From the NCBI GenBank assembly GCA_963777165.1, contig CAVZPO010000027.1, forward strand, positions 22,209 to 86,208: a stretch of 64,000 bases of DNA. Reading direction: 5' to 3'. The position numbers were made by a program, and so were the translations under genes. Below the pieces are notes generated by a model. It was not told the origin of the DNA, searched no databases, and saw only the letters and a program-made list of their open reading frames with translations. Source of the DNA: an uncultured Chloroflexia bacterium. GTDB taxonomy: Bacteria; Chloroflexota; Anaerolineae; Anaerolineales; E44-bin32. Below, piece by piece: positions 16,214 through 48,722 of this stretch; within the stretch, counting starts at the first letter, position 1, and each line of letters starts with the position of its first letter.

Positions 16214-17045
16214 GTGAAAGTGCACAAGGTTTGGATTGGCGTGGGCTGGAAAATAAATCACACCCTCCCTGAAGCGGAGGCCTATGCGATTGCGCTGAGA
16301 CAATTCATCAAGAGCTCACAAACCTCATTGGGGGTCTTCGTCGTCCCGCCCTATACCGTCTTGCATCGAGTGAGCAGCTTGCTGAAAGAGACGCCCATTC
16401 TGGTCGGTGCGCAGAACATGCACTGGGAAGAACGCGGGGCTCACACAGGCGAAATCTCCCCTCTGATGTTGAAGGACTGTGGGGTCACCTTGGTGGAGCT
16501 GGGGCATTGTGAACGCAGGCTCCACTTCGGTGAAACCGACAAGACAGTCAACCTGAAGACCCTGGCGGCACTAAGACATGGTCTGAAACCGCTGATCTGC
16601 GTCGGGGAGACGGCGGAGGAGGGAGAGTCTGGTGCTGCATATCCGGCACTTGCTCGTCAAGTGAGGATTGCCCTGCGCGGAGTCCCGTCTGAACAAGTTC
16701 AACACGTAATGTTCGCCTATGAGCCAGCACGCGGCTATCGGAGACGGCGGAACCCCCGCCGACCCCGATTCCGTGGGGGCCGCTGTTGCATGGCTGCGCT
16801 CGCAAGTTGCGGATGCCTACACTGAACAAGCGGCAGGTGAGATCACCATCCTGTATGGTGGGGGCGTGAGCCAGGAAAACGCCCGCCTCTATCTGTCACA
16901 GCCCGGGGTTGACGGTTTGTTCATTGGTAGGGCGGCGTGGAAGGCGGAGGATTTCGTCGCCATCATTCATTCGATAGCAGTGCGGGCGGCCGAGACAAGG
17001 CCTGGAAAGGACATTGCTGACCATGAAGATACTGATCGGAAGTGA
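16214..17045 (+). CDS. Triosephosphate isomerase-family paralogue, with one frame break near 16730
   Basis: ORF 16214..16825: VGAQNMHWEERGAHTGEISPLMLKDCGVTLVELGHCERR...ICVGET...FAYEP. It continues in ORF 16719..17045: AIGDGGTPADP...ILYGGGVSQENA...GLFIGRAA. Confidence 0.75.
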
Positions 17046-17481
17046 TCACATCGGATATCCTCTTAAGGCTGACTTGCTATCCTTCCTGGGGAGCTTGGGA
17101 CACGCCGTGATTGATGTTGGGTGCGACGGAGATCATGATGTCGTCGACTACCCGGATATCGCCGTTGCCCTGGCGGAACGAATCAGATCTGGGGAGACTG
17201 ATCGCGGTGTACTGGTCTGCGGCACAGGGATCGGCATGGCGATCGCGGCTAACAAGGTTCCCGGGATTCGGGCCGCGTGTTGCCATGATGCGTACTCTGC
17301 TGAGCGGGCGAAGAGAAGCAACAACGCGCAAGTCATGACGATGGGAGCCCTGATAGTCACGCCAACCTTGGCGCATGAGATCATGAGTCATTGGCTTGCC
17401 TCCGAATTCGCTGATGGGAAGTCCGCGCAGAAGGTCCAGAAACTGATCGACCTGGACACCCGCTTTCGAGGTTCGGGCTGA
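17014..17481 (+). CDS. RpiB/LacA/LacB-family sugar-phosphate isomerase
   Basis: ORF 17014..17481: MKILIGSDHIGYPLK...GVLVCGTGIGMAIAANKVPGIRAACCHD...RSNNAQVMTMGA. Likely start at 17023. Confidence 0.85.
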   Translation: MLTMKILIGSDHIGYPLKADLLSFLGSLGHAVIDVGCDGDHDVVDYPDIAVALAERIRSGETDRGVLVCGTGIGMAIAANKVPGIRAACCHDAYSAERAKRSNNAQVMTMGALIVTPTLAHEIMSHWLASEFADGKSAQKVQKLIDLDTRFRGSG

Positions 17482-35153: not shown

Positions 35154-36011
35154 ATGTCTAGTGGGCGTATGCCACCTCCCGACCGGCGTCTGCGGGTTGA
35201 TCGTGCCAGCCCGCTCCCGCTGCACGTCCAGGTAACACAGGCTCTCCGAGACCAGATCGTGCGCGGCGCCTGGAAGCCCGGCGACCGAGTCCCGGGAGAC
35301 CTGGAATTGTGCTCCGAGCTCGGGATCAGCCGGACCACCATCCGTCAAGCCTTGGCGGAGATGGCGCACGAGGGGTGGGTGGTGCGCGAACGGGGTCGCG
35401 GGACTTTCGTTGCGCCCCCGAAGCTGACCGAGACCGCCGTCGAAAGATTGTCGGGCTTCTTCGAAGACATGGTCGCCCTTGGCTACCCGCCAATCAGCCA
35501 GGTGCTGCATCAGGAAGACCGCCCGGCCGACGAGCAGATCGCTGCCCGGCTGAACGTCAGGCCCGGGACGCGCATCGTCGAGATCGAGCGGCTGCGTTTC
35601 GTGGAGGACGAGCCGGTGGTGTTGACTACGACCTACCTGCCCCTGGCGTTGGCGCCGGGACTGGCAACGGCCGACCTCACCCGCCGATCGTTGTACGAGT
35701 ATCTGGAAACCGAGTGCGGCCTGACGCTGGCGCGCGGACAGCGCACCATCGAGGCCGTCGCTGCCGATGTCCGCCAGGCCAGGCTGCTTCGCATCCGCAA
35801 GGGCGCTCCGCTGGTATACCTGCAAAGCGTGAGCTATCTGGCGGACGGGCGGCCGATTGAGTACTACCGGGCGCTCCACCGCGGCGACCGCTCGCGCTTC
35901 GAGGTCGAGCTGGTTCGAGGCCGAGATCGCGGGGCGGCCGGATCGGACGGGGACCGCTTCGGGCGGCTGCCTCCGGGCGGCGGGACCGTCCGGCGCAGGG
36001 ACGTAACGTGA
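35154..36011 (+). CDS. GntR/HutC-family transcriptional regulator (wHTH plus UTRA)
   Basis: ORF 35154..36011: PLHVQVTQALRDQIVRGAWKPGDRVPGDLELCSELGISRTTIRQALAEMAHEGWVVRERGRGTFV. A UTRA-like C-terminal domain follows. Confidence 0.9.
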   Translation: MSSGRMPPPDRRLRVDRASPLPLHVQVTQALRDQIVRGAWKPGDRVPGDLELCSELGISRTTIRQALAEMAHEGWVVRERGRGTFVAPPKLTETAVERLSGFFEDMVALGYPPISQVLHQEDRPADEQIAARLNVRPGTRIVEIERLRFVEDEPVVLTTTYLPLALAPGLATADLTRRSLYEYLETECGLTLARGQRTIEAVAADVRQARLLRIRKGAPLVYLQSVSYLADGRPIEYYRALHRGDRSRFEVELVRGRDRGAAGSDGDRFGRLPPGGGTVRRRDVT

Positions 36012-36042
36012 CGAGTCGGAGTTCGGCGGCCAGGAGGGGTTC

Positions 36043-36783
36043 GTGACGAACAGGGAAGTGATCCGGGCCAAGGTCCGCCAGGCGGTGTATCGCACGCTCG
36101 GCCTGGAGCCGCACCTCGATCCCGCGCCCAGGCGCCGCCTCGTGACCGAGCACGACCTGCGCGGCCTGCCTTTCGGATCGGACTTCCAGGTTCCGGAAGC
36201 CGGCCTGATCACGCCCCTGGCCCGCCAGGTTGCCATGGATCGCCACATCACACTGCACAAGACATCCGCGCCGGCAACGACTACAAAGAAGCAAACGCCG
36301 CGCACACCCAATGTGGCCGCCGGAGGCAAGGCCGTCGCCATCGGCGCCGACCATGGGGGCTTCCAACTCAAGGAGACGCTCAAGGCCTACTTGCACGAGC
36401 TCGGGCATGAGGTCATCGACTGTGGGACGAACAGCACCGAGGCGGTCGACTATCCGGATTTCGCCCTGGCGGTGGCCGAACTGGTGTCGCAGGGGCGGGC
36501 CTGGCGCGGCATCTTGGTCGACGGCGCCGGCATCGGTTCGTGCATGGTTGCCAACAAAGTGCCGGACGTCAGGGCGGCCATGTGCTACGACCAGTCCACT
36601 GCCGTGAACAGCCGCGAGCACAACGACGCTAACGTGCTGACGCTGGGTGCGGGCCTGATCGGCGAGACGCTTGCCCGTCAGATCGTCAAGACCTGGCTCG
36701 AGACGCCGTTCGGCGGCGGCCGGCACGCGCGCCGCGTCGAGAAGATCATGGAGACCGAACGGCGCTTCCTGCGCAGGCCCTAG
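36043..36783 (+). CDS. rpiB: Ribose-5-phosphate isomerase B (RpiB/LacAB family) with an N-terminal extension of about 100 aa
   Basis: ORF 36043..36783. Core: [15 protein letters not shown]...[28 protein letters not shown]...[12 protein letters not shown]. Extension: amphipathic helix [16 protein letters not shown], then [10 protein letters not shown]...[17 protein letters not shown]. Confidence 0.85.
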
Positions 36784-36823
36784 GCAGCGGCGACGAAGGA
36801 CTCTGGAATTCCTAACGGGACGA

Positions 36824-37690
36824 ATGATGAAGCCGATTGACGAGAAGACACTGGATCGCATCATCGAGCAGATCACCAGCCAGGTGCTGCTCAGCCTGCA
36901 GGAGGAGCCGGCTGCGAAGGGCTCGCCTGCCCCCGCCCCTCTCTCGGCGCACGATTTCGTGCAGCACGCTCGTCCGGTGCTGAGCGCCGGCGCCGATCGT
37001 CTGGCCAGCACGCTGGGGATCGCGCCGACCGACAAGAGCCTGGCGCACACCATCGACCACACGCTGCTCAAGCCCGACGCCACGCAGGACCAGATCGCCC
37101 AGTTGTGTTTCGAGGCCCGCAAGTACGGCTTCGCCTCGGTGTGTGTCAACTCCTCCCACGTCAAGCTGTGCGCCGATCTGCTCAAAGGCAGCGGTGTCCC
37201 GGTGTGCACGGTCATCGGGTTCCCGCTGGGCGCCACGCCGACCGATGTCAAGGTCTTCGAGGCCCAACAGGCCATTCGCGACGGCGCCAGCGAACTGGAT
37301 ATGGTGATCAACGTCGGCGCGCTCAAGTCGCGGGAGTACGAGTTGGTGCGAGGCGACATCGCCGCCGTGGCCCGCGCCTGCCACGCCGGGAATGCCATTC
37401 TGAAGGTCATCATCGAGGCCGCCTTCCTGACGGATGAGGAGAAAGTGATCGCCTGCCAGCTGGCCAAGGTGGCCGATGCCGACTTCGTCAAGACCTCGAC
37501 CGGCTTCGGCCCCAGCGGGGCGACGCCGGAAGATGTCGCCCTGATGCGGCGCGTCGTCGGTCCGTCCATGGGGGTGAAGGCAGCCGGCGGCATCCGTACC
37601 TACGCCGATGCTCAGAAGATGATCGCCGCCGGCGCCAGCCGGATCGGCGCCAGTGCCAGCGTCAAGATCATTCAGGGACCTGAGAAGTAG
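36824..37690 (+). CDS. deoC: Deoxyribose-phosphate aldolase (DERA) with an N-terminal extension of about 60 aa
   Basis: ORF 36671..37690, Met at 36824. Core: [11 protein letters not shown]...[10 protein letters not shown]...VIGFPLGAT...[12 protein letters not shown]...[10 protein letters not shown]...FVKTSTGF. Extension: [21 protein letters not shown] plus a Pro/Ala linker. Confidence 0.9.
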
Positions 37691-37709
37691 CCGGCAAGGA
37701 GAAGCGCCC

Positions 37710-38348
37710 ATGGCCGTGGATCTAAGGACCTACATCTTTCTCGACAGCCTGCAGCTCCAGCACTCGGGCTTCCTGGGGACCGTTGCCCGGGGGTTCTTGC
37801 CCCTGCCCAACGACACCTCGCTGTGGGTCGAGATCTCGCCCGGGATCGAGATCAACCGCATCACCGACATCGCCCTGAAGTCGACCCGTGTCCGTCCCGG
37901 GATGCAGATCGTCGAGCGGTTGTTCGGGATGCTTGAAGTTCATCATGAGGACCAGGCCGAGGTGCGGGCCGCCGGGGCGGCCATCCTGCGGGCGCTCGAT
38001 CTTCAGGAATCGGATCGCATCAAGCCCAGGGTGGTGTCGAGCCAGATCATTCGCCACATCGACGCCCATCAGGTTCAGCTGATCAACCGCATGCGGCATG
38101 GCCACATGCTGTTGGCCGGCCAGACCCTGTACGTGTTGGAGGTCGAGCCAGCCGGGTACGCCGCCCTGGCCGCCAACGAGGCGGAGAAGGCCGCGGACAT
38201 CAACATCCTTGAGGTGATGGCCTTTGGCAGCTTTGGCCGTGTGTACCTTGGGGGTGAGGAACGCGACATCATGGCCGCCTACGGCGCGGCCGTGGGCGCC
38301 ATTGAAGGGGTGTCCGGGCGCGTGGTCGAAGGTGGCCGGCGCGACTAG
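37710..38348 (+). CDS. BMC shell protein, tandem-domain (BMC-T), divergent
   Basis: ORF 37653..38348. Met at 37710 follows AAGGAGAA. 212 aa with two BMC-like halves (...[22 protein letters not shown]... and ...[42 protein letters not shown]...). Confidence 0.75.
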
Positions 38349-38409
38349 GTCGAGGAAACCGTCGAGCGTAGACGTTCGAACTCATCCAACGAGTCATCAG
38401 GAGGCAACT

Positions 38410-38730
38410 GTGTCTGAAGAATACGGAGCAACCGAAGCGCTGGGAATGATCGAGACCAAGAGCTACGCGGCCATGGTCGAGGCGGCCGACGCGATGGTCA
38501 AGGCGGCCAAGGTCGAGCTCGTCGCCTACGAGAAGACCGGCGGCGGGTTTGTCACGGCCATCGTGCGCGGCGACGTCGCCGCGGTCAAGGCGGCCGTGGA
38601 AGCCGGTGCGCGCGGGGCGGAGAAGGTCGGCGAGGTCGTCGCCATTCACGTCATCCCGCGCCCGCATGTCAATGTGGATCGCACGCTGCCTCTGGGCCGC
38701 GGCCCTGCCGCCGGCAAGGGCGGCAAGTAA
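38410..38730 (+). CDS. BMC shell protein, hexamer type (BMC-H, PduA/EutM-like)
   Basis: ORF 38224..38730. GTG start at 38410 follows AGGAGG. Sequence: [58 protein letters not shown]. Confidence 0.9.
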
Positions 38731-38838
38731 CCGGACCCTGTGGCGGTTGTCCCAGGCGGTCCCCGGCCCGTTCCGGGGGCCGCCCGGGCGGACGCACGCC
38801 GCCTCGCCGAGAGGTATGGGCGTCGAATGGAGTAGCCA

Positions 38839-39138
38839 ATGCTGCTGGGCAGAGTAGTGGGCACGCTCGTCGCCACGCGCAAGGAGCCGTCGCTCGAGGG
38901 GCTGAAGTTCCTCGTGCTGCGTCAGCTGGACATCGACGGCAAGGAGATGTCCGGCTACCGGGTGGCGGCCGACGCGGTGGGGGCGGGCCTGGGTGAAGTG
39001 GTCCTGTACGCCACGGGCAGCTCGGCGCGCATGACCACCGTCACCGACAAGCGTCCGTGCGATGGCGTGATCATGGCCATCGTCGACACGCTTGAGGTGG
39101 ACGGCGTGGTGACCTACGACAAGGCCAGGGTCGGGTGA
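38839..39138 (+). CDS. BMC vertex protein (BMC-P, EutN/CcmL family), copy 1
   Basis: ORF 38839..39138: [31 protein letters not shown]...[10 protein letters not shown]. Confidence 0.9.
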
Positions 39139-40640
39139 TGGGCGACCGGCGCGACCGTGGGGCGCAGGAGCATGCCGTGCTCGATGACGCCCGGATTGAC
39201 GCGATCATCGAAAGGGTCATGGCCGAACTGCGCCAGGCGGAGAGCGGCCCGCATGAGCCGCTGCCGCCCGCCAGTCCAGCCTTGCCGTCCGCGCCGGCTC
39301 CCGATCTGCGCCATGCGGACAACCTGTTCCCGGATGTCGACAGCGCCGTGCAGGCCGCCCGGCGGGCCTTTGAGCAGCTGGGCGGGCTGCCCCTGGCGTT
39401 GCGCGAGCGCATGATCGGGGGAATGCGGCGGACGGCACGCGAGAACGCCCAGGTCCTGGCGCGTCTGGCCTGGGAAGAGACCGGCATGGGGCGGCTCGAG
39501 GACAAGATCGAGAAGAACCTGCTCAACGCCAACAAGGCGCCCGGTACGGAAGTCCTCACCCCGACAGTCTGGACCGGGGACGACGGGATGGCGCTCGTGG
39601 AGTACGCCCCGTACGGCGTCATCGGCTCGATCACCCCGAGCACCAACCCGACCTCGAGCGTGATCTGCAACGCCATCAGCATGGTCGCCGCCGGCAACTC
39701 GGCGGTGTTCAACGCGCACCCGGGGGCCAAAGGCTGCACGAACCTGACGGTGCAGCTGCTCAATCAGGCGATCGTCGAAGCCGGCGGGCCGGCCAACCTG
39801 GTGTGCGCCATTGCCGAGCCGACGATCGAATTGGCGCAGGAGCTCATGCACCACCCGACGGTGAACCTGCTGACGGTGACCGGTGGGGAGGGCGTGGTGC
39901 ACGCCGCCATGCAGAGCGGCAAGCGCGCCATCTGCGCCGGCCCGGGCAACCCGCCGGTCGTGGTGGATGAAACGGCCGATATCGACGAGGCCGGGCGCGG
40001 GATCGTGCGCGGCGCCTCATTCGACAACAACATCGTGTGCATCGTCGAGAAGGAGACCTTTGCCGTGGCGACGGTCGCCGAGGCCCTCAAGCGCTCGATG
40101 CTCGCTCACGGCGCCTACGAGATCGATGCCGGCCAGCTCGAGCGGCTGATGAAGGTCATCTTCACCCAGGTGCCGCCGCCGGGGAAGGTCGGGCCGCTGA
40201 ACAAGTCCTTCATCGGCAAGAGCGCCGCCGTGCTGCTCAAGGAGATCGGCATCACCGTCGGCGACGAGATCCGTCTGATCGTGGCCGAGGTCGCCGCCGA
40301 TCACCCGCTGGTCGTGACCGAGCAGATGATGCCGATCATGCCGCTGGTGCGCGTGCGCCATGCCGACGAAGGCATCGACCTGGCCAAAAAGGTGGAGCAC
40401 GGCTACCGGCACACGGCGGTGATGTACTCCAAGAACCTCGATCATCTCAGCCGCATGGCGCGGGTCATGGACTGCAGCATCTTCGTCAAGAATGCCCCGT
40501 CGCTGGCAGGTCTGGGCGCCGGCGGGGAGGGGTTCTGTTCCTTCACCATCGCCAGCCCCACCGGCGAGGGCATCACCAATCCGATCAGTTTCAGCCGCCT
40601 CCGGCGCTGTACGCTCAAGGATGCGTTCCGAATCGTATGA
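39135..40640 (+). CDS. CoA-acylating aldehyde dehydrogenase (PduP/EutE-like) with an N-terminal encapsulation-peptide-like helix
   Basis: ORF 39135..40640, intact, 501 aa. N-terminus [18 protein letters not shown] plus a Pro-rich linker. Core ...[26 protein letters not shown]...[13 protein letters not shown]. Confidence 0.9.
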
Positions 40641-40676
40641 GACCGATGCGCCCATTCTGCAGCAAGGCGATGACCG

Positions 40677-41267
40677 ATGATTGAGCCCGCACTCGCTCTG
40701 GTCGAGTTCTCCAGCATTGCCGCCGGGATACAAGCCGCCGATGCGATGGTCAAGCGCGCCCCGATCGACGTGATCAAGGCGGGGACCGTGCACAACGGCA
40801 AGTACCTGGTGCTGATCGGCGGCCTGACAGCGGATGTCGAGGAGTCGCTGGCCGCCGGCCGGCAGGTCGGCGCCGATGCAGTCCTGGATTTCGTCTTCCT
40901 GCCGCACGTGCATCCCGAGGTCGTCGAGACGATCGGCGGAGCGCGTGCGCCGCAGGCCAACGACGCGCTGGGCGTGATCGAGACGACGACGGCGGCCGGC
41001 GCCATTCACGCCGCCGATGCCGGCGTCAAGGCCGCCATGGTCCGCCTGGTCGAGGTGCGCCTGGCCGACGGCCTGGGCGGGAAGGGTATCGTCCTGTTCT
41101 CCGGGCTGGTCGCCGACGTCGAAGCCGCCATTCAGGGCGGCGTGGGCGTCCTCGAACGGCCGGACCTGCTCGTGCGCCAGGTCGTCATCCCGCAGCTGCA
41201 CCCCGGCATGTGGGAGAACGTCGGCGACGCCACACGCTTCGGCCACCGCGTGCTGGGCCACCTATGA
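40677..41267 (+). CDS. BMC shell protein, tandem-domain (BMC-T, PduT-like arrangement)
   Basis: ORF 40677..41267. Two BMC domains: ALALVEFSSIAAGIQAADAMVKRAPIDVI... and ALGVIETTTAAGAIHAADAGVKAAMVRLV... Confidence 0.85.
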   Translation: MIEPALALVEFSSIAAGIQAADAMVKRAPIDVIKAGTVHNGKYLVLIGGLTADVEESLAAGRQVGADAVLDFVFLPHVHPEVVETIGGARAPQANDALGVIETTTAAGAIHAADAGVKAAMVRLVEVRLADGLGGKGIVLFSGLVADVEAAIQGGVGVLERPDLLVRQVVIPQLHPGMWENVGDATRFGHRVLGHL

Positions 41268-41596
41268 AATTCGCCCGCGTGCAAGGCACCGTCGTGGCCA
41301 CCCGCAAGTACGAGGGGCTCGAGGGCGTCAAGTTCCTGGTCGTCCAGCCGCTGGACGAGGATCTGCGACCCGTCGGCGGTCCGCAGATCGCAGCCGACGC
41401 CACGGCCCAGGCCGGGCCGGGGGAGCTGGTCCTCGTCGTCGGCAGCCGCGAAGCGGCGCAGGCCCTGCCCGTGGTGTTCGTCCCGGTCGATCTGGCCATC
41501 ACCGGCATCATCGACGAGGTGGAGGTCGAGCGCGGGCTGCGCCGCACACAGCCGACGGCCGTCTGGCACAGTCCGCCGTCCGAGGACGAGGACTGA
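41264..41596 (+). CDS. BMC vertex protein (BMC-P), copy 2
   Basis: ORF 41210..41596, Met at 41264 (ATGA overlap): MKFARVQGTVVATRKYEGLEGVKFLVVQPLDED...LVLVVGSREA. Confidence 0.9.
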   Translation: MKFARVQGTVVATRKYEGLEGVKFLVVQPLDEDLRPVGGPQIAADATAQAGPGELVLVVGSREAAQALPVVFVPVDLAITGIIDEVEVERGLRRTQPTAVWHSPPSEDED

Positions 41597-41598
41597 CG

Positions 41599-41871
41599 AT
41601 GTACATCGGCAAAGTGATCGGGACGGTTGTTTCGACGATCAAGATCTCGCACCTCGATGGCCGCAAGCTGCTGCTCGTGGATCAGCTCGATCTGCAGGGG
41701 AATGAGACCGGGGCGTACGATATCGCCGTGGACGTCGTCCAGGCCGGGCCGGGCGATACGGTGCTGGTGATCGACGAAGGCAACGGCGCGCGCCAGATCC
41801 TTCAGCTCGACCCGGGGGCGATCCGGGCGGTGATCGTGGGCGTGGTCGACGAGGTGGCGCTGGGGATGTAG
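41599..41871 (+). CDS. BMC vertex protein (BMC-P), copy 3
   Basis: In-frame tail of ORF 41017..41871 from Met at 41599: MYIGKVIGTVVSTIKISHLDGRKLLLVDQLD...[11 protein letters not shown]. Confidence 0.9.
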   Translation: MYIGKVIGTVVSTIKISHLDGRKLLLVDQLDLQGNETGAYDIAVDVVQAGPGDTVLVIDEGNGARQILQLDPGAIRAVIVGVVDEVALGM

Positions 41872-43468: not shown

Positions 43469-44116
43469 CTACCTCTGGCCGTACTTGCTCTGGTAACGGT
43501 GGTGCAGGGCCGCCACGGCTTCTGCCGGGATCTCGTCGGGGTGACCCAGCTGCAGCGCCAGCCACGAGGTCCGGGCCACATCCTCGACCATCACGGCGGC
43601 CTTGACGGCGTCTTCCGCGGTCGGGCCGAGGGTGAACACGCCGTGGTTCTTGAGCAGGACAGCGCAGGAGGGGCCGATCGAACTCCACGACGACCCGGCC
43701 GATCTCTTCGCCGACCGATGGGCGCGAACCCCCCGCAGGGGATCGGTCCGCCGAACTCATCGGCGTGAGCCGTCAGATAGACCGGGATCGACCGGGCATT
43801 GGCGGCGAAGGCCGTGGCATAGGGGGAATGCGTATGAACAATTCCACCGACGTCCGGACGGTGCCGGTAGATGTAGAGGTGGCTGGCCGTATCCGAGGAG
43901 GGCAGCAAGTCCGAGTCCCGAACTTGTCCCTCGAGATCGACGATCACCATGAGCTCGGGACGAAGGTCCTCATAGCGAACTCCGGACGGTTTGATCACCA
44001 CCAGCCCCGTGGCCGCATCTCGGGCGCTGACGTTGCCGCTCGTCCAGGCGACGAGCCCGTTCCTGGGCAGCTCCTGGTGCAGGCGGAACAGGCTGTCGGC
44101 GCAGGGCTTCAAGCAT
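43469..44116 (-). pseudogene. araD: L-ribulose-5-phosphate 4-epimerase (class II aldolase fold), with at least 3 frameshifts
   Basis: ATG at 44116 (MLEALR). Middle part in ORF 43591..44328: LFRLHQELPRNGLVAWTSGNVSARD...VIKPSGVRYEDL...SSDTASHLYIY...GGIVHTHSPYATAFA. C-terminus in a third frame (own translation ...AEDAVKAAVMVEDVARTSWLALQLGHPDEIPAEAVAALHHRYQSKYGQR*). Confidence 0.75.
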
Positions 44117-45805
44117 GGACGACCTCCGCTCCGGCTGCGCACCTCGGCTCTCCAGCGCTTCAGCCGTTTGAGGACATCATTCTCGCCGCGCCCGAAGTAA
44201 TCGTGCAGTCGCAGATAGTCGCTGTAGATCTCAGTGTAGGCTGCGTGGTGCTGCGGGTCCGGCAAGAAAGCCTCGTCGTTCAACCGAGCCATACGGCTCG
44301 GCCGCGGCGTAGATCGTGTCATATCCACCCAAACGTGCGCCGGCGGCCACGGCGCCGAACATCGCTGATCCCAGGGCAGGCGTCTGTTTCGAAGAGCTGA
44401 CTTGGATAGGCAAGCCGGTGACGTCGGAGAAGATCTGCATCAGCAGCCTGTTCTTCTCCGGCAATCCACCGCAGGCCACGAGCTCATGGATCGGGACGCC
44501 GTTCTGCTGAAACGTCTCAACGATCACTCGTGTGCCGAATGCCGTGGCCTCGATCAAGGCCCGGTAGATCTCCTCGGGCCTGGTGGCGAGGGTCGCGCCG
44601 AGCAGCAGGCCCGCCAGATCCACATCGACCAATACCGAGCGATTGCCGTTCCACCAATCGAGGGCCAGCAGCCCACTTCCCCCGGCGCGAGGGCGGCGGC
44701 CTTCCGTTCGAGCAGGGTGTGGATGTCGATCCCTTCTTCGGCTGCTTCGCGCTCGAGGCAGCGCCGGAACGCAGTTCTCCACGAACCAAGCGAAATGGTC
44801 GCCCACGCATGATTGCCCCGCCTCGTAGCCAAAGAATCCGGGGATGATCCCATCTTCCACGCACCCGCACATGCCCGGCACAAGGTGCTCTTCCTTGCCG
44901 CAGCACCATGTGACAGATGGAGGTGCCCATGATCATGACCATGCGCCCGGCGCTCCGTGACGGTCGTGGCCGGCACGGCGACGTGGGCGTCGACGTTGGC
45001 GATCGCCACCGCCGTGCCAGGCATCAGGCCCGTCCAAGCGGCGGCCTGCTGTGTGAGACCGCCGGCTTTCTCGCCCACAGGCCGAATGTCACGCGACATC
45101 TTCGCTTCTACGACGGTGCCGAACTCGGGGTTCAGGGCGCCGAAGTACGCCGGCGGAGGAAAGCCTTCGCGCTTGGACCACAGCGCCTTGTAGCCGGCCG
45201 TACACGAGTTGCGGGTCTCGGCGCCCGTCAGCTGCCAGACGACCCAGTCTGCCGCCTCGATCAGCCGATCTGCGGCGGCGTAGACCGCGGGCGCTTCGTT
45301 CAAGATCTGCAGGGACTTGGAAAAGAACCACTCCGAGGAGATCTTCCCACCGTAGCGATTGAGCCAGGCTTGCCCCGTCTCCCGGGCCACGCGGTTGATC
45401 TCGTCCGCCTCGGGCTGTGCGGCGTGGTGCTTCCAGAGCTTCACCCAGGCGTGCGGCTCGCCACGCCACTCGGGCAGCGTGCAGAGCGGTGTCCCATCGG
45501 ACGCGAACGGGAAGCATGGTGCAGGCAGTGAAGTCGATCCCCACGCCGATGACGTCGCTGGGGAGACACACCGGCGTCCTGGAGCACCTGCGGGATGGTG
45601 GCCCGAAGCGTGCGAAGGTAGTCCTCCGGGTCCTGCAACGCCCAGTCAGGCGCAAGCGGGAGACCCGTTTCCGGCAAGCGTCTCGTCGATGACCCCGTTC
45701 GAGTAGGGGTACACCGCAGTCGCCACCTCGTGGCCGGTGCCGACATCGACCAAGACGAGCCCTACCGGACTCTGTCCCGAAATCCACACCGATGGCGTAC
45801 TTCAT
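44110..45805 (-). pseudogene. araB: Ribulokinase (FGGY family), with at least 5 frameshifts
   Basis: N-terminus MKYAIGVDFGTESGRA (start at 45805, ORF 45089..45823). Internal pieces in ORFs 44554..45444 (KLWKHHAAQPEADEINRVARETGQAWLNRYGGKISSEWFFSK...) and 44231..44881 (...[48 protein letters not shown]). C-terminus ...[27 protein letters not shown] in ORF 43591..44328. Confidence 0.75.
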
Positions 45806-45847
45806 CCGAGTGCACCTCCACAACCAACTCGAGCGGCAAGCGCCGCG

Positions 45848-46710
45848 CTAACCGGTGGCTCCGCTTCCTGGGTGATGATAGATATCCCAGTCCATGTACT
45901 TTCCAAGACCCTCTTGCAGGATCGAGGCACAGCGCGACGGGTTGATGGCTACATGATGTTCGAAGCCTTGCTCGCAGATGTGCGTCAGCAGATCTCTGCA
46001 AGCTGGTCGATGTGAACGACGCCGTAGCCGCCAAAGGTCCGCAAGGGATCGTTCGTCAGCTGGCCTTCGCCGAAGTAGGCCCGGATGCTGTCCGCGGAGT
46101 GTCATCGGGGGAAACGCGGCAGTAGGTGAAGGGTGTTTCCCGAACGCGACCGACGATGGTCCCATACGTGTTCTCTTTGCCGACCGTGCCGGCGATGATG
46201 GCCTGATAATCCATGGTCGGGATGTCCTCGGGGGCGATCCCTTCCTGGACGAAGATGTCCTTGGGGAGATTGGAGCAGTGGAAGATGACGGCTTTGTCCG
46301 GATCGTCTCCGTAGTTGTTGTTCCAATCCACGATCGCACTGGGCTTCCCCGTCGCCAGGACCATGGCGTACATGCCCACAAGTCCGGCGACGTCCGTCTC
46401 ACACGCGGAGGGCATGAGGTTGTTGCTCATCATGCTCATCAGGGTGCACGGCACGACGCCGTAGAACTCCTCCATCGCCGTCCAGCATTGCAGGGCGGTC
46501 GCCACCACCTCCGTCTCCTGCATCCAGCCCTCGATGGCAACCCCAAGTTTCGCCATTCTGCGTCAGGATCAAGGGTGGCACGCGGCCGGTCGAGACATAA
46601 GCCATAATCTCATCGATCTTGTGTTTGACCGAAGGCTCGCTGTCGCCGAGCTTCAGCGCCCGGCCGAAGATCTCAGAGAGATCGACCGTCTCGACCGAGA
46701 TGCCGGTTGA
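45848..46710 (-). pseudogene. FucI-family sugar isomerase (araA position), 5'-truncated and frameshifted; paralogue of 2509..3927
   Basis: ORFs 46056..46556 (AKLGVAIEGWMQETEVVATALQCWTAMEEFYGVVPCTLMSMMSNNLMPSACETDVAGLVGMYAM...VDWNNNYGDD) and 45848..46402 (...ICEQGFEHHVAINPSRCASILQEGLGKYMDWDIYHH). The first ~260 codons are absent. Confidence 0.7.
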
Positions 46711-47727
46711 CCGCCCGTCAGCGACGGTCTGCAGGTTTGGATCCGAAGCGCGGAAGACGCCTTCCTGCGAGGGCACCCACTTGGGCAGCTCCTCGCCGTT
46801 GGCGGCCTTCAGGGCGGCTTCATACACCTGCGGCGCGAGCAGCGGGTTGCACTCCACCGCCACGTTCACCTCTCCGGCGAGCATCGCCTTGAAGGCGCCC
46901 GCCGTCGCATCGAAGGTCAGGACCATCACGTCCTTGCCCGGAACGAGGCCGGCTTCCCTAAGGGCCTCGATCGCACCCAGGCCCATCTCGTCGTTCTGGG
47001 CAAAGATGCCGTTGACGTCCTTGCTTTCCTTCAGCCAGGCCTCGGTGACGGCCTTGCCTTCGGTAGCGCTCCAGTTACCGGTCTGGCTGTTGGTGATGGT
47101 GATTCCGCATGCGCCCATGCCTTCGCGGAACCCCTGGCCGCGGTCCTTGGCGGCCGACGAACCCACATTCCCGACCAGTTCCCAGACGACCTTGCCGCGT
47201 GCTGCCTTCCAGCAGCTTGCACATCTCCTCGGCGCCCTTGCGGCCTTCCAGCGCGAAGTCGGAGCCGATGTAGGTGGCGTACAGGTCCTCGGGGGCGTCA
47301 ATGCGCCGATCTTCAAGGACGACGATCTTGCCGGCGTCCTTGGCTTCCTTGAGAACATCCTCCCAGCCCGTGGTCTCGAGGGCGGCCAGGATGATCACGT
47401 TCACCTCAGGATCCTGGATGAACTGGCGAAAGCCCGCCACTTGATTGGCCAGGTCGTTCTGCGAGTTGTAGAACTTCAAGGTCAGGCCCAGCTGCGTTGC
47501 GGTCTCCTTGAAGGAGGCTGTATTGGCTGCGCGCCAGCCGCCCTCGGATCCGGTCTGCAGGAAACCCACGACCAGGTCCGAGTACTCGCAGTTTGGTGAG
47601 CACGCCAAGCCGGCGGCTGGTGCCGCAGGGGCTACCGGGGCCTCGGTCGCCGGGGCGCGGGGCGCAAGCGCCCAGGGCGAATGGCGGCAACGAGGAGAAC
47701 AAACGCAATCGTCTTGATGCGGGACAT
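46711..47727 (-). pseudogene. Periplasmic sugar-binding lipoprotein (RbsB/YtfQ-like), frameshifted; its 3' end abuts the truncated isomerase
   Basis: Start MSRIKTIAFVLLVAA at 47727. Pieces in ORFs 47075..48013 (...DLVVGFLQTGSEGGWRAANTASFKETATQLGLTLKFYNSQNDLANQVAGFRQFI...) and 46399..47358 (...VWELVGNVGSSAAKDRGQGFREGM...IFAQNDEMGLGAIEALREAG...). Confidence 0.7.
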
Positions 47728-47922
47728 GTCGATGCTCCTTCTCTCGATGTATTGCCCTTGCGAATTGCGGGCGGAAACGAACGATCCTTTGTCGACTTCG
47801 TGCGGTCTTCGCTGATGAGCCCGTGCTTCGGTCCTCGCGCGCGACGACGGACACGACGAGTGGGCTGGCGGCTCTGGCGATCTTCTCCTCTCCCCTGCGT
47901 AGCCTCCTTTCGTGTTCCTGGT

Positions 47923-48722
47923 CTATGAGGACGGTCGGATGGAGCTCTGTCGGACGACCAGAGTCGGGGACAAGATGACCGGCGTGGGAGCCGGTGCGGC
48001 GGTGCCTGTCCACTGGAATCCGATCATCCGGATCACTTCCTCCACGGCGATCTTTCCCAGTGCATGTTGGTCCTGCTCGATCGTCGTGAGAGGTGGCCAG
48101 TAGTACGCGGACTCGGAAATGTTGTCGAAACCGACAACGCCCAGGTCCCGCGGGATGCTGATACCCCTCTGACAGGCCGCTTGCATGACGCTCAGCGCCA
48201 TCTGGTCGTTGGCGACGAAGACCGCATCCATCGTCGGGTACTGTCTGGAAGAGCCGCTCGATGGCCTCGGCGCCGCTGGCAGAAGACCAGTTCCCCTCGA
48301 CCGAAGCCTTCCGCTTCTGGCTCCAGGCCAGCTTCCCTGAGGGTGTCCTCCCAGGCGGCTTTACGCTGTCGGGCCTCCCACCAATCCAGCGGTCCTGAGA
48401 TGTGGCCGATTTGCCGGTAGCCCTGATCGAGCAAATGGGCGACGGCCAGGCGGGCGCCAGCGTAGTTGTCGATCGAGACCGCCTTGAGGTTCTTGCGAGG
48501 CTCCATCGTCAAGGAGACGATCGGGACCTCTGAATCCAACGTCAGCCGATCGACGAACTCCCGGTTCGCACCGATCTCGGGGATGGCCCAGATGACGCCG
48601 TCGACATGGCGCGAGTGGAGCGTCTGGAAGATCGGCAAGACGTCGTTCGAGTTGAACTGGGGAAGCTCCTTCAGAGAAGCGAGTAGCCCAAACCTCGGCT
48701 GCGCCAGCGATGCCGTCAAGGA
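47923..48722 (-). pseudogene. LacI-family regulator lacking its N-terminal HTH (cut at repeat R2) and frameshifted near 48210
   Basis: ORFs 48192..48719 (...PIVSLTMEPRKNLKAVSIDNYAGARLAVAHLLDQGYRQIGHISGPLDWWEARQR) and 47923..48231 (DAVFVANDQMALSVMQAACQRGISIPRDLGVVGFDNI...). No DNA-binding domain lies upstream. Confidence 0.75.

Follow-up and report, generated by a model that had tools for sequence, protein, structure and literature searches.

The N-terminal 'linker' of RpiB in a Chloroflexota sugar-phosphate utilisation microcompartment operon contains a conserved, predicted folded module resembling the N-termini of EutQ and EutT

The closest described relatives of the system analysed here are the sugar-phosphate utilisation (SPU) bacterial microcompartments (BMCs) of Dwyer et al. 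2024 (PMC11585597), who found every SPU DERA, and SPU RPI as well, to be extended at the N-terminus, and the SPU aldehyde dehydrogenase (AldDH) to carry encapsulation peptides (EPs), which drive core aggregation. In that study SPU RPI and DERA formed an approximately 1:1 complex in the absence of the DERA N-terminal extension. The SPU6 RPI carries Asp in place of Cys66 and showed negligible isomerase activity, and it was speculated that RPI may persist for encapsulation. The approximately 75 residues between its N-terminal helix and its core were described as an unstructured, less conserved linker, and no module was identified there. Here we analysed a 64,000-nucleotide stretch of DNA (the window) from an uncultured Chloroflexia bacterium (GenBank assembly GCA_963777165.1, contig CAVZPO010000027.1, positions 22,209 to 86,208), which carries an SPU-type operon encoding RpiB (the RPI), DeoC (the DERA) and an acylating AldDH, each with an N-terminal extension. 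In contrast to the published description of SPU6, most of the RPI 'linker' is here a conserved folded module.

Other encapsulation systems offer points of comparison. In Salmonella, the first 99 residues of EutQ are enough to direct GFP to Eut microcompartments (Yang et al. 2025, PMC12487888). Within them, H1/H2 (residues 9-41) was assigned to shell binding and H3/H4 (residues 62-99) binds the EutC and EutE peptides; deletion of either part separates the shell from the cargo, and in nuclear magnetic resonance (NMR) experiments the EutC peptide induced no chemical-shift change in EutQ 2-62 (PMC12487888). Deleting the encapsulation peptide of EutE delocalises EutE (PMC12487888). PduM has an N-terminal signal that targets the core and a 'body' needed for the core-shell connection; its loss partly separates core from shell, and it was reported to have no homologues outside Pdu (mSphere 2025, PMC12108088). 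The carboxysome scaffolds CcmM, CsoS2 and CcmN likewise use an inactive enzyme homologue or a repeat protein to tie cargo to shell, with multivalency from tandem modules; they have no sequence relationship to RpiB, and the parallel would be a functional one only.

Judged by its gene content, the operon (Table 1) is an SPU-type, SPU6-like BMC operon of a Chloroflexota genome. DERA (PF01791) and AldDH (PF00171) lie beside BMC-H, BMC-T and BMC-P genes, with six shell genes in the operon, and RPI (PF02502) is present. The closest match in gene content and order is SPU6 of Chloroflexi bacterium GWB2_54_36 (PMC11585597; catalogue in Sutter et al. 2021, PMC8217296), which shares the GntR/UTRA regulator followed by RPI and DERA, the AldDH, one BMC-H, a double-stacking BMC-T and three BMC-P, together with the N-terminal extensions of RPI and DERA, the Cys66 to Asp replacement in RPI and a Chloroflexota host. 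By gene content, the published SPU6 description is further matched by the order GntR-RPI-DERA and by the lack of PduS and PTAC, and the host fits it too. One feature weighs against the subtype assignment: the SPU6 AldDH was reported to carry its encapsulation peptide at the C-terminus (PMC11585597), whereas the AldDH of the window ends level with E. coli EutE (...FRIV) with no C-terminal extension. The AldDH of all 56 orthologues with a readable C-terminus also stops at the core (...FRIV, in one case ...FRII), and the helix is N-terminal wherever the upstream sequence is readable. Either this locus family is not SPU6 in the classification of Dwyer et al., or the published statement needs checking.

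An earlier note on this DNA, made from the sequence alone, had proposed a small extra domain between the N-terminal helix and the core of RpiB, and structure prediction bore this out. In the AlphaFold 2 (AF2) model of the full protein, a helix at residues 4-19 (predicted local distance difference test, pLDDT, ~75) is followed by a 12-residue connector (pLDDT 59), the folded module at residues 31-73 (pLDDT 82-93) and a disordered stretch at residues 76-94 (pLDDT 33). Modelled in isolation, the module gave a mean pLDDT of 94 and a beta-alpha-beta-beta-alpha-beta fold. Its consensus is LVTExDxRxLPxGxxxxxPxxxxxTPLARQxAMDRxIxL, with eight invariant positions in a set thinned to <75% identity; it is 42 residues long in 171 of 171 instances, and residues 31-73 are among the best-conserved parts of the protein. 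A hidden Markov model (HMM) of the module had a single match in the window, to RpiB (E = 6e-22; next best 0.33). Because of its fixed length, its conservation, its duplication as a unit and its confident AF2 fold, RpiB 31-73 is a domain and not a linker. The published view, in which residues 20-96 would be the plain flexible linker of an ordinary encapsulation peptide, agrees with how Dwyer et al. describe the region; it is contradicted by these four properties and by the homologues of residues 31-73 in other BMC proteins, and we regard it as very improbable. In the AF2 model only residues 21-30 and 74-96 act as linkers: the string LDPAPRRR, taken for the linker, belongs to the 12-residue connector, and the true low-complexity linker is residues 74-96. 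Pfam and NCBIfam scans and a PDB sequence search of RpiB residues 1-97 returned no match, nor did Pfam and NCBIfam scans of the N-terminal regions of all three enzymes. The interpretation of this region as a folded EutQ/EutT-type domain is new with respect to the literature searched, where it appears as a linker.

The number of modules varies among RpiB proteins. Among 120 close homologues, most of them 246 residues long, one, two and three copies were found in 84, 6 and 25 proteins, respectively; by HMM count the corresponding figures for 79 genome loci were 65, 2 and 12. Three copies are typical of Anaerolineales. The triple-module RpiB is approximately 405 residues long (loci L013-L018, L020, L026, L028-L030 and L032, Anaerolineales; proteins P0046, P0050 and P0057), with a period of approximately 79 residues and a semi-conserved spacer of its own behind every copy; proteins of the P0110 type have two copies.

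The genome loci were obtained from a module scan of one genome per species, in which 136 places encoded an RpiB-type module and 79 loci were fetched. An RpiB core follows the module in 78 of the 79. Downstream we found DeoC in 74, the CcmP-like shell protein in 70, BMC-H in 67, BMC-P in 63 and AldDH in 61, and nearly all of the shortfalls were due to contigs ending early; the divergent locus L071 was the only one with ample downstream DNA and yet no shell-gene match. Gene order is identical in L001 and L003 and in approximately 60-70 further loci. The hosts belong to Chloroflexota (Anaerolineales, Ardenticatenales, Chloroflexia and others), Gemmatimonadota and Acidobacteriota, and the nearest genome match is an uncultured Chloroflexia metagenome-assembled genome (MAG; L009), whose proteins are 95-100% identical to those of the window. 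One locus, L018 (JAIWHF010000058.1, coverage 0.38), lies on a contig labelled as a 'Methanosarcinales archaeon' MAG and holds a complete SPU operon; its proteins are 70-91% identical to the window proteins, the same level as in Anaerolineales loci, and its RpiB is of the triple-module type. It is most likely a mis-binned bacterial contig rather than an archaeal microcompartment.

These data agree with the earlier proposal that the extensions are specific to BMC loci: outside L071, DeoC, shell genes and AldDH lie behind the module-bearing RpiB wherever the DNA suffices. The extensions of the three enzymes are kept in 60-78 orthologous loci of the three phyla, and homologues outside BMC loci lack them, with no counterpart in E. 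coli DeoC, E. coli RpiB or the housekeeping RpiB paralogue encoded elsewhere in the window. The outcome that the earlier note had named as a refutation, orthologues outside BMC loci with the same N-termini, was thus not observed. Because the linkers differ in length and sequence whereas helices and module are conserved in all three phyla, the extensions are more than chance.

The earlier note had likened the small domain to the small N-terminal domain of some EUT/PDU-associated proteins such as EutT-like adenosyltransferases, and profile searches bore out the likeness to EutT, identifying EutT, EutQ and other BMC proteins as relatives of the module. In hhalign comparisons the module profile matched residues 2-46 of E. 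coli K-12 EutT with a probability of 95% (E = 3e-8) and residues 2-47 of E. coli K-12 EutQ with 92% (E = 5e-7), against less than 1% for reversed sequences and at most 14.5% for 120 shuffles. When the 25-kb E. coli eut region was scanned in six frames with HMMER, just two matches lay below E = 1, namely EutT (5e-8) and EutQ (6e-6). By these profile comparisons the RpiB module is homologous to the N-termini of EutT and EutQ. EutT, a corrinoid adenosyltransferase, is the best pairwise match, although its catalytic domain (PF01923) is unrelated to RpiB; no assigned function for its N-terminal 46 residues was found in the literature searched.

In EutQ, the aligned residues 2-47 comprise H1/H2 (PMC12487888). 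Both proteins are encoded in BMC operons, and in both the element is flexibly coupled to a cargo-handling element. The arrangement differs: in EutQ the module comes first, followed by the EP-binding H3/H4 and an active cupin acetate kinase, whereas in RpiB the module stands behind an EP-like helix and is attached to an inactive isomerase. Some RpiB proteins also have it in triplicate, and identity is approximately 33%. The module could instead be a cargo-cargo interaction or oligomerisation domain that condenses the core and makes no shell contact, the shell link being made via the helices or another protein. EutQ 1-99, the fragment that targets GFP, also includes the EP-binding H3/H4, an RPI-DERA complex exists, encapsulation peptides drive core aggregation, and tandem repeats would suit multivalent condensation. 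Nevertheless, it is H1/H2 that is homologous to the module, the EutC peptide caused no NMR shift in EutQ 2-62, and the RPI-DERA complex formed without the N-terminal extension of DERA. We therefore consider a purely cargo-cargo role unlikely, while still the foremost of the alternatives.

The module is not confined to RpiB. Searching 1.84 billion representative proteins with the module profile yielded 176 matches at E <= 0.001, of which 145 were scanned with Pfam. A recognisable RpiB domain was present in 33 of these 145, and many others look by sequence like N-terminal fragments of RpiB; two were class II aldolases, and an ACT protein, a PduL and an EutQ-like cupin occurred once each. When the 45-column module profile was run against a word-indexed protein set, for which such a query is too short, four matches came back. 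In the Ardenticatenales class II aldolases (L040, 9976-10800; L053, 971-1813) the module stands at the very start with no helix before it, and in L040 approximately 3 kb separate this gene from the SPU locus upstream of it, the RpiB of which bears the module too. On the Rahnella victoriana plasmid NZ_CP089920.1 (L088, 11437-12132), a 'flavoprotein' of a glycyl-radical microcompartment (GRM) locus has an EP-like N-terminal helix and the module at its C-terminus (HMMER E = 1.6e-9). This lead came from a tblastn search of one module against plasmids, which gave mostly noise, and was confirmed with HMMER; members of NCBIfam TIGR02536 (eut_hyp) have the same C-terminal match.

In an EUT3-like locus with a CsoS1D_N-type BMC-T (L092, 10001-10616), the module is encoded by a 59-residue open reading frame (ORF; P0222, module profile E = 4.6e-13) of its own, directly upstream of a 132-residue EutQ cupin ORF. 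EutA and EutC are split as well on this contig, and the separation of module and cupin may reflect either a frameshift or true fission of the gene. Small proteins of approximately 90-100 residues form a further family, which (P0177, P0184, P0198, P0206, P0209, P0226, P0239, P0245 and P0252) combines a TPAARD variant of the module with the conserved C-terminal motif LPDGDYLVEVRGGKxRIRR. The contigs recovered for carriers P0202, P0177 and P0216 were 0.6-2 kb long, that of the small-protein family being 613 bp, and held no information on neighbouring genes. Residues 5-91 of E. coli K-12 EutQ (L005, 19303-20004) match the first 88 positions of the NCBIfam EutA model NF007991 (E = 1.5e-9), which suggests that some EutA reactivases may bear an EutQ-like N-terminal region.

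A possible relationship to PduM emerged from the same set, by matches weaker than those in the GRM flavoprotein, PduL and the class II aldolases. Fifteen of the 145 scanned matches align with PF15953 (PduM family) over its final ~40 positions only, and module carriers align with positions 111-153 of the PduM models with best E values of 5.8e-7 (PF15953) and 0.001-0.03 (TIGR04493). This suggests that the PduM C-terminus may be related to the module, contrary to the published statement that PduM has no homologues outside Pdu. PduM also shares with RpiB a two-element logic of N-terminal encapsulation peptide and body, and the rest of PduM has no counterpart in RpiB. Membership of RpiB in the PduM family was rejected: RpiB 1-97 had no match to it and the matches of other carriers are partial and below the cut-offs, which points to a shared module and not to membership.

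The range of carriers bears on what the module might do in general. As a small regulatory or ligand-binding domain for a nucleotide, cofactor or sugar phosphate, with only an incidental BMC link, it would agree with its presence on the nucleotide or phosphate-ester enzymes EutT, EutQ, PduL and RpiB and with the ACT-domain fusion. These carriers share no common chemistry, however, and the BMC locus is their sole common trait; the module sits on a flexible tether away from the catalytic domain, it occurs in one to three copies, and the RpiB body appears catalytically dead. A sensor role is accordingly quite improbable. A broader proposal, which we put forward tentatively and hold to be somewhat short of an even bet, is that the 42-residue module would be a general, portable, folded shell-docking domain of BMCs, a second targeting class beside encapsulation peptides. 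It would be used in EUT (EutQ, EutT), probably in PDU (PduM), in GRM (the flavoprotein) and in SPU (RpiB and class II aldolase), and the SPU RpiB would staple the DERA/AldDH core to the shell with a valency set by one to three modules.

Alignment with E. coli RpiB and with the window paralogue placed Asp160 of RpiB at the catalytic Cys66, a loss that the earlier note had missed. Asp occupies this position in 74 of 78 loci, and the remaining four were unreadable. The protein nevertheless scores 158.1 bits against TIGR01120, above the equivalog cut-off of 138.65, though the catalytic Cys66 is missing. Without its catalytic Cys, RpiB more likely serves as a scaffold than as a cargo enzyme. The paralogue, which the earlier note had offered as an internal control, serves as such: it has no extension and has kept the catalytic Cys.

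The peptide strings that the earlier note quoted from RpiB, DeoC and AldDH were all found where it had placed them, and the architecture that it assigned to all three, an amphipathic helix with a Pro/Ala linker, holds for DeoC and AldDH and is less clean in RpiB. With E. coli EutC (0.60) and EutE (0.40) encapsulation peptides as calibration, the hydrophobic moments of the DeoC and AldDH helices (Table 1) are at or above the reference values. The RpiB helix did not exceed 0.30 in any window and stood at 0.13-0.21 for the span originally proposed, no better than shuffles; RpiB orthologues of other clades reach 0.40-0.48. Across loci the RpiB helix retains the motif (I/V)Rx(M/L/K)VRxx(V)(Y/H)RT(L/V)G; the DeoC motif TLERIIEQITxQVL is conserved in 74 loci and the AldDH motif RIDAIVxQVMxEL in most of the 61 AldDH loci with a readable upstream frame. 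DeoC and AldDH share the 15-20-residue amphipathic helix and variable Pro/Ala linker of canonical encapsulation peptides (PduP, PduD, EutC and EutE; Fan 2010, Kinney 2012, Aussignargues 2015). DeoC departs from this pattern by an extra conserved segment of approximately 36 residues behind its linker, and RpiB by a basic, weakly amphipathic helix followed by a folded domain. The extra DeoC segment, residues 42-77, is probably what Dwyer et al. describe as two low-confidence beta strands in the DERA extension. The E. coli DeoC alignment showed that E. coli DeoC lacks the N-terminal extension, and that D159, K194 and K223 are invariant, so the catalytic Asp and Lys are kept; AldDH is 48% identical to E. 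coli EutE. From these sequence features we propose that DeoC, the signature enzyme that produces the aldehyde, and AldDH would be true cargo enzymes packaged via classical encapsulation peptides. Three tagged cargo proteins are ordinary and already published, and the idea that this BMC is 'unusually cargo-rich' does not stand: several tagged cargo proteins per metabolosome are the norm, and Dwyer et al. list extensions of RPI, DERA and AldDH (PMC11585597). Nor are all three sugar-phosphate enzymes, as had been stated, since AldDH is not one.

The extensions could in principle be annotation artefacts, with the true start codons downstream of the helices, an outcome that the earlier note itself had named as fatal to its claim. 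The AldDH ORF can indeed open 14 codons too far upstream, and several other genes of the window have frameshift-like breaks. Yet amino-acid conservation runs through the helices in the 60-78 loci of three phyla, good ribosome-binding sites precede the starts of RpiB and of AldDH at 39177, and every candidate start lies upstream of the helices. Downstream starts are thus contradicted, and of all the explanations considered this one has the least to commend it. For RpiB, an AGGAGG ends 7 nucleotides upstream of the GTG at 36043 and orthologues begin at the equal position. The start of AldDH itself had to be moved: it is most likely the GTG at 39177, and not the in-frame GTG at 39135 or ATG at 39138, because an AGGAG lies 7 nucleotides upstream and nearly all of the 61 readable orthologues begin with M(L)DDxRID there. 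The helix is downstream of each of these codons. The longest ORF, from 39135, adds 14 residues that have no counterpart in orthologues.

Homology between its module and the part of EutQ that binds the shell makes RpiB a possible core-shell adaptor. The composite explanation, towards which we lean by a little, is that RpiB is a pseudoenzyme adaptor that would link the core to the shell. The RpiB body would bind DERA, as in the published 1:1 complex; its helix would join the bundle of encapsulation-peptide helices of the core; and its mini-domain would dock on the shell from within, possibly where BMC-H and BMC-T meet, the site proposed for EutQ. In Anaerolineales, three tandem mini-domains would give multivalent attachment. 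By analogy with EutQ, we judge that there is roughly an even chance that the module binds the shell. From our own analysis the explanation draws on gene order, conservation, restriction to BMC loci, the predicted fold, the EutQ/EutT homology, copy-number variation and the Cys to Asp replacement. It also draws on published work, namely shell binding by EutQ H1/H2, the inactivity and DERA binding of SPU RPI and the separation of core from shell on loss of PduM or EutQ.

Several points weigh against this explanation. We infer shell binding by the RpiB module, and the linking role of RpiB, from homology, and that homology spans only ~40 residues with 31-33% identity to the E. coli proteins. The EutQ assignment itself comes from deletion imaging and modelling, with no solved interface, and Yang et al. 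give H1/H2 as two helices (PMC12487888), whereas the AF2 model of the module also has short strands. A Foldseek search of the module model against the PDB found no similar solved structure (best E = 0.69, to unrelated large proteins), and the PduM link stays under the family thresholds. As the RpiB helix is only weakly amphipathic here, its behaviour as a classical encapsulation peptide may be doubtful. Finally, M. tuberculosis RpiB is functional with Glu at the base position, according to Dwyer et al. (PMC11585597), and Asp at the catalytic-base position alone is no proof of inactivity.

Table 1 Features of the SPU-type operon and of the RpiB paralogue (positions in the window)
Feature	Coordinates	Strand	Details
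Operon	35154-41871	+	Order GntR, RpiB, DeoC, CcmP-like BMC-T, BMC-H, BMC-P, AldDH, BMC-T, BMC-P, BMC-P
GntR/UTRA regulator, operon gene 1	35154..36011	+	Pfam GntR E 1.5e-19, UTRA E 4e-45; position kept in L001 and L003
BMC-type RpiB, 246 residues, GTG start	36043..36783	+	PF02502 over residues 98-235
RpiB residues 4-20, basic N-terminal helix, EP-like	36052..36102	+	AF2 helix
RpiB residues 31-73, folded 42-residue mini-domain (EutQ/EutT-N-like module)	36133..36261	+	Fixed length, AF2, hhalign
RpiB residues 74-96, disordered Thr/Pro/Ala/Lys-rich linker	36262..36330	+	Low pLDDT; sequence varies among homologues
RpiB core domain	36331..36780	+	Asp160 (codon 36520-36522) at E. coli Cys66 position
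DeoC/DERA, 288 residues, ATG 36824 or 36827	36824..37690	+	PF01791
DeoC residues 6-28, amphipathic EP helix	36839..36907	+	Hydrophobic moment 0.68
DeoC residues 29-41, Pro/Ala linker	36908..36946	+	Variable among orthologues
DeoC residues 42-77, second conserved part of extension	36947..37054	+	..YVxRVQPVVxAGADRIASTLGxAPTD..; 74 loci
CcmP-like tandem-domain shell protein (BMC-T, double-stacking), 212 residues	37710..38348	+	NCBIfam NF053796, 357 bits (cut-off 340)
BMC-H hexamer; start approximate, from orthologue length	38410..38730	+	PF00936 E 7e-29; orthologues 102-108 residues
BMC-P pentamer 1	38839..39138	+	PF03319 E 4e-27
Acylating AldDH, preferred GTG 39177, 487 residues	39177..40640	+	PF00171
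AldDH N-terminal amphipathic EP helix	39180..39242	+	Hydrophobic moment 0.59; aligns with EutE EP
AldDH Pro/Ala-rich linker	39243..39305	+	Length and sequence vary among orthologues
Tandem-BMC shell protein (BMC-T), 196 residues	40677..41267	+	PF00936 matched twice, E 4e-34
BMC-P pentamer 2; start from orthologue length	41264..41596	+	PF03319; orthologues 108-109 residues
BMC-P pentamer 3, 90 residues	41599..41871	+	PF03319; orthologues 90 residues
Housekeeping RpiB paralogue, internal control	17014..17481	+	No extension; catalytic Cys kept

Among the shell genes, that of the 212-residue CcmP-like BMC-T has only a faint PF00936 match (E = 0.006), though NF053796 identifies it as a full-length CcmP-like BMC-T, and its orthologues have a precomputed match to PF27545 (CsoS1D_N). 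The SPU6 operon in Dwyer et al. includes two unassigned 'hypothetical proteins' (PMC11585597). The CcmP-like BMC-T is the best-conserved protein of the operon, with 74-100% identity over 70 loci of three phyla and >84% in all but two; in most loci its identity exceeds that of the enzymes, BMC-P and the 196-residue BMC-T, and is similar to that of BMC-H.

The BMC operon is intact, unlike several sugar-catabolism genes adjoining it (43591-48013 on the minus strand and 16214-16825 on the plus strand), which are split into pieces in different frames. A class II aldolase matches its profile over positions 3-132 of 183, an FGGY kinase has its C-terminal domain separated from the N-terminal part, a periplasmic binding protein falls into two pieces (2-122 and 122-258), only a fragment remains of a fucose/arabinose isomerase and a TIM stops at position 165 of 245. 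These are either pseudogenes or the result of indel errors in a long-read metagenome assembly.

Few BMC types are as widespread as SPU microcompartments, and the role of RpiB in them is an acknowledged puzzle: it is conserved, although it is inactive and no pathway links it to DERA. Recognising its linker as a conserved folded module leads to a concrete, testable answer, namely that RpiB may be a core-shell adaptor. The relationships described here also suggest that EutQ, EutT, RpiB and other BMC proteins may share one docking domain that has no stand-alone database model, and to which PduM may belong. If so, this domain would serve as a new and useful tag with which to bring cargo into engineered shells, and a dedicated profile would improve the annotation of BMCs.

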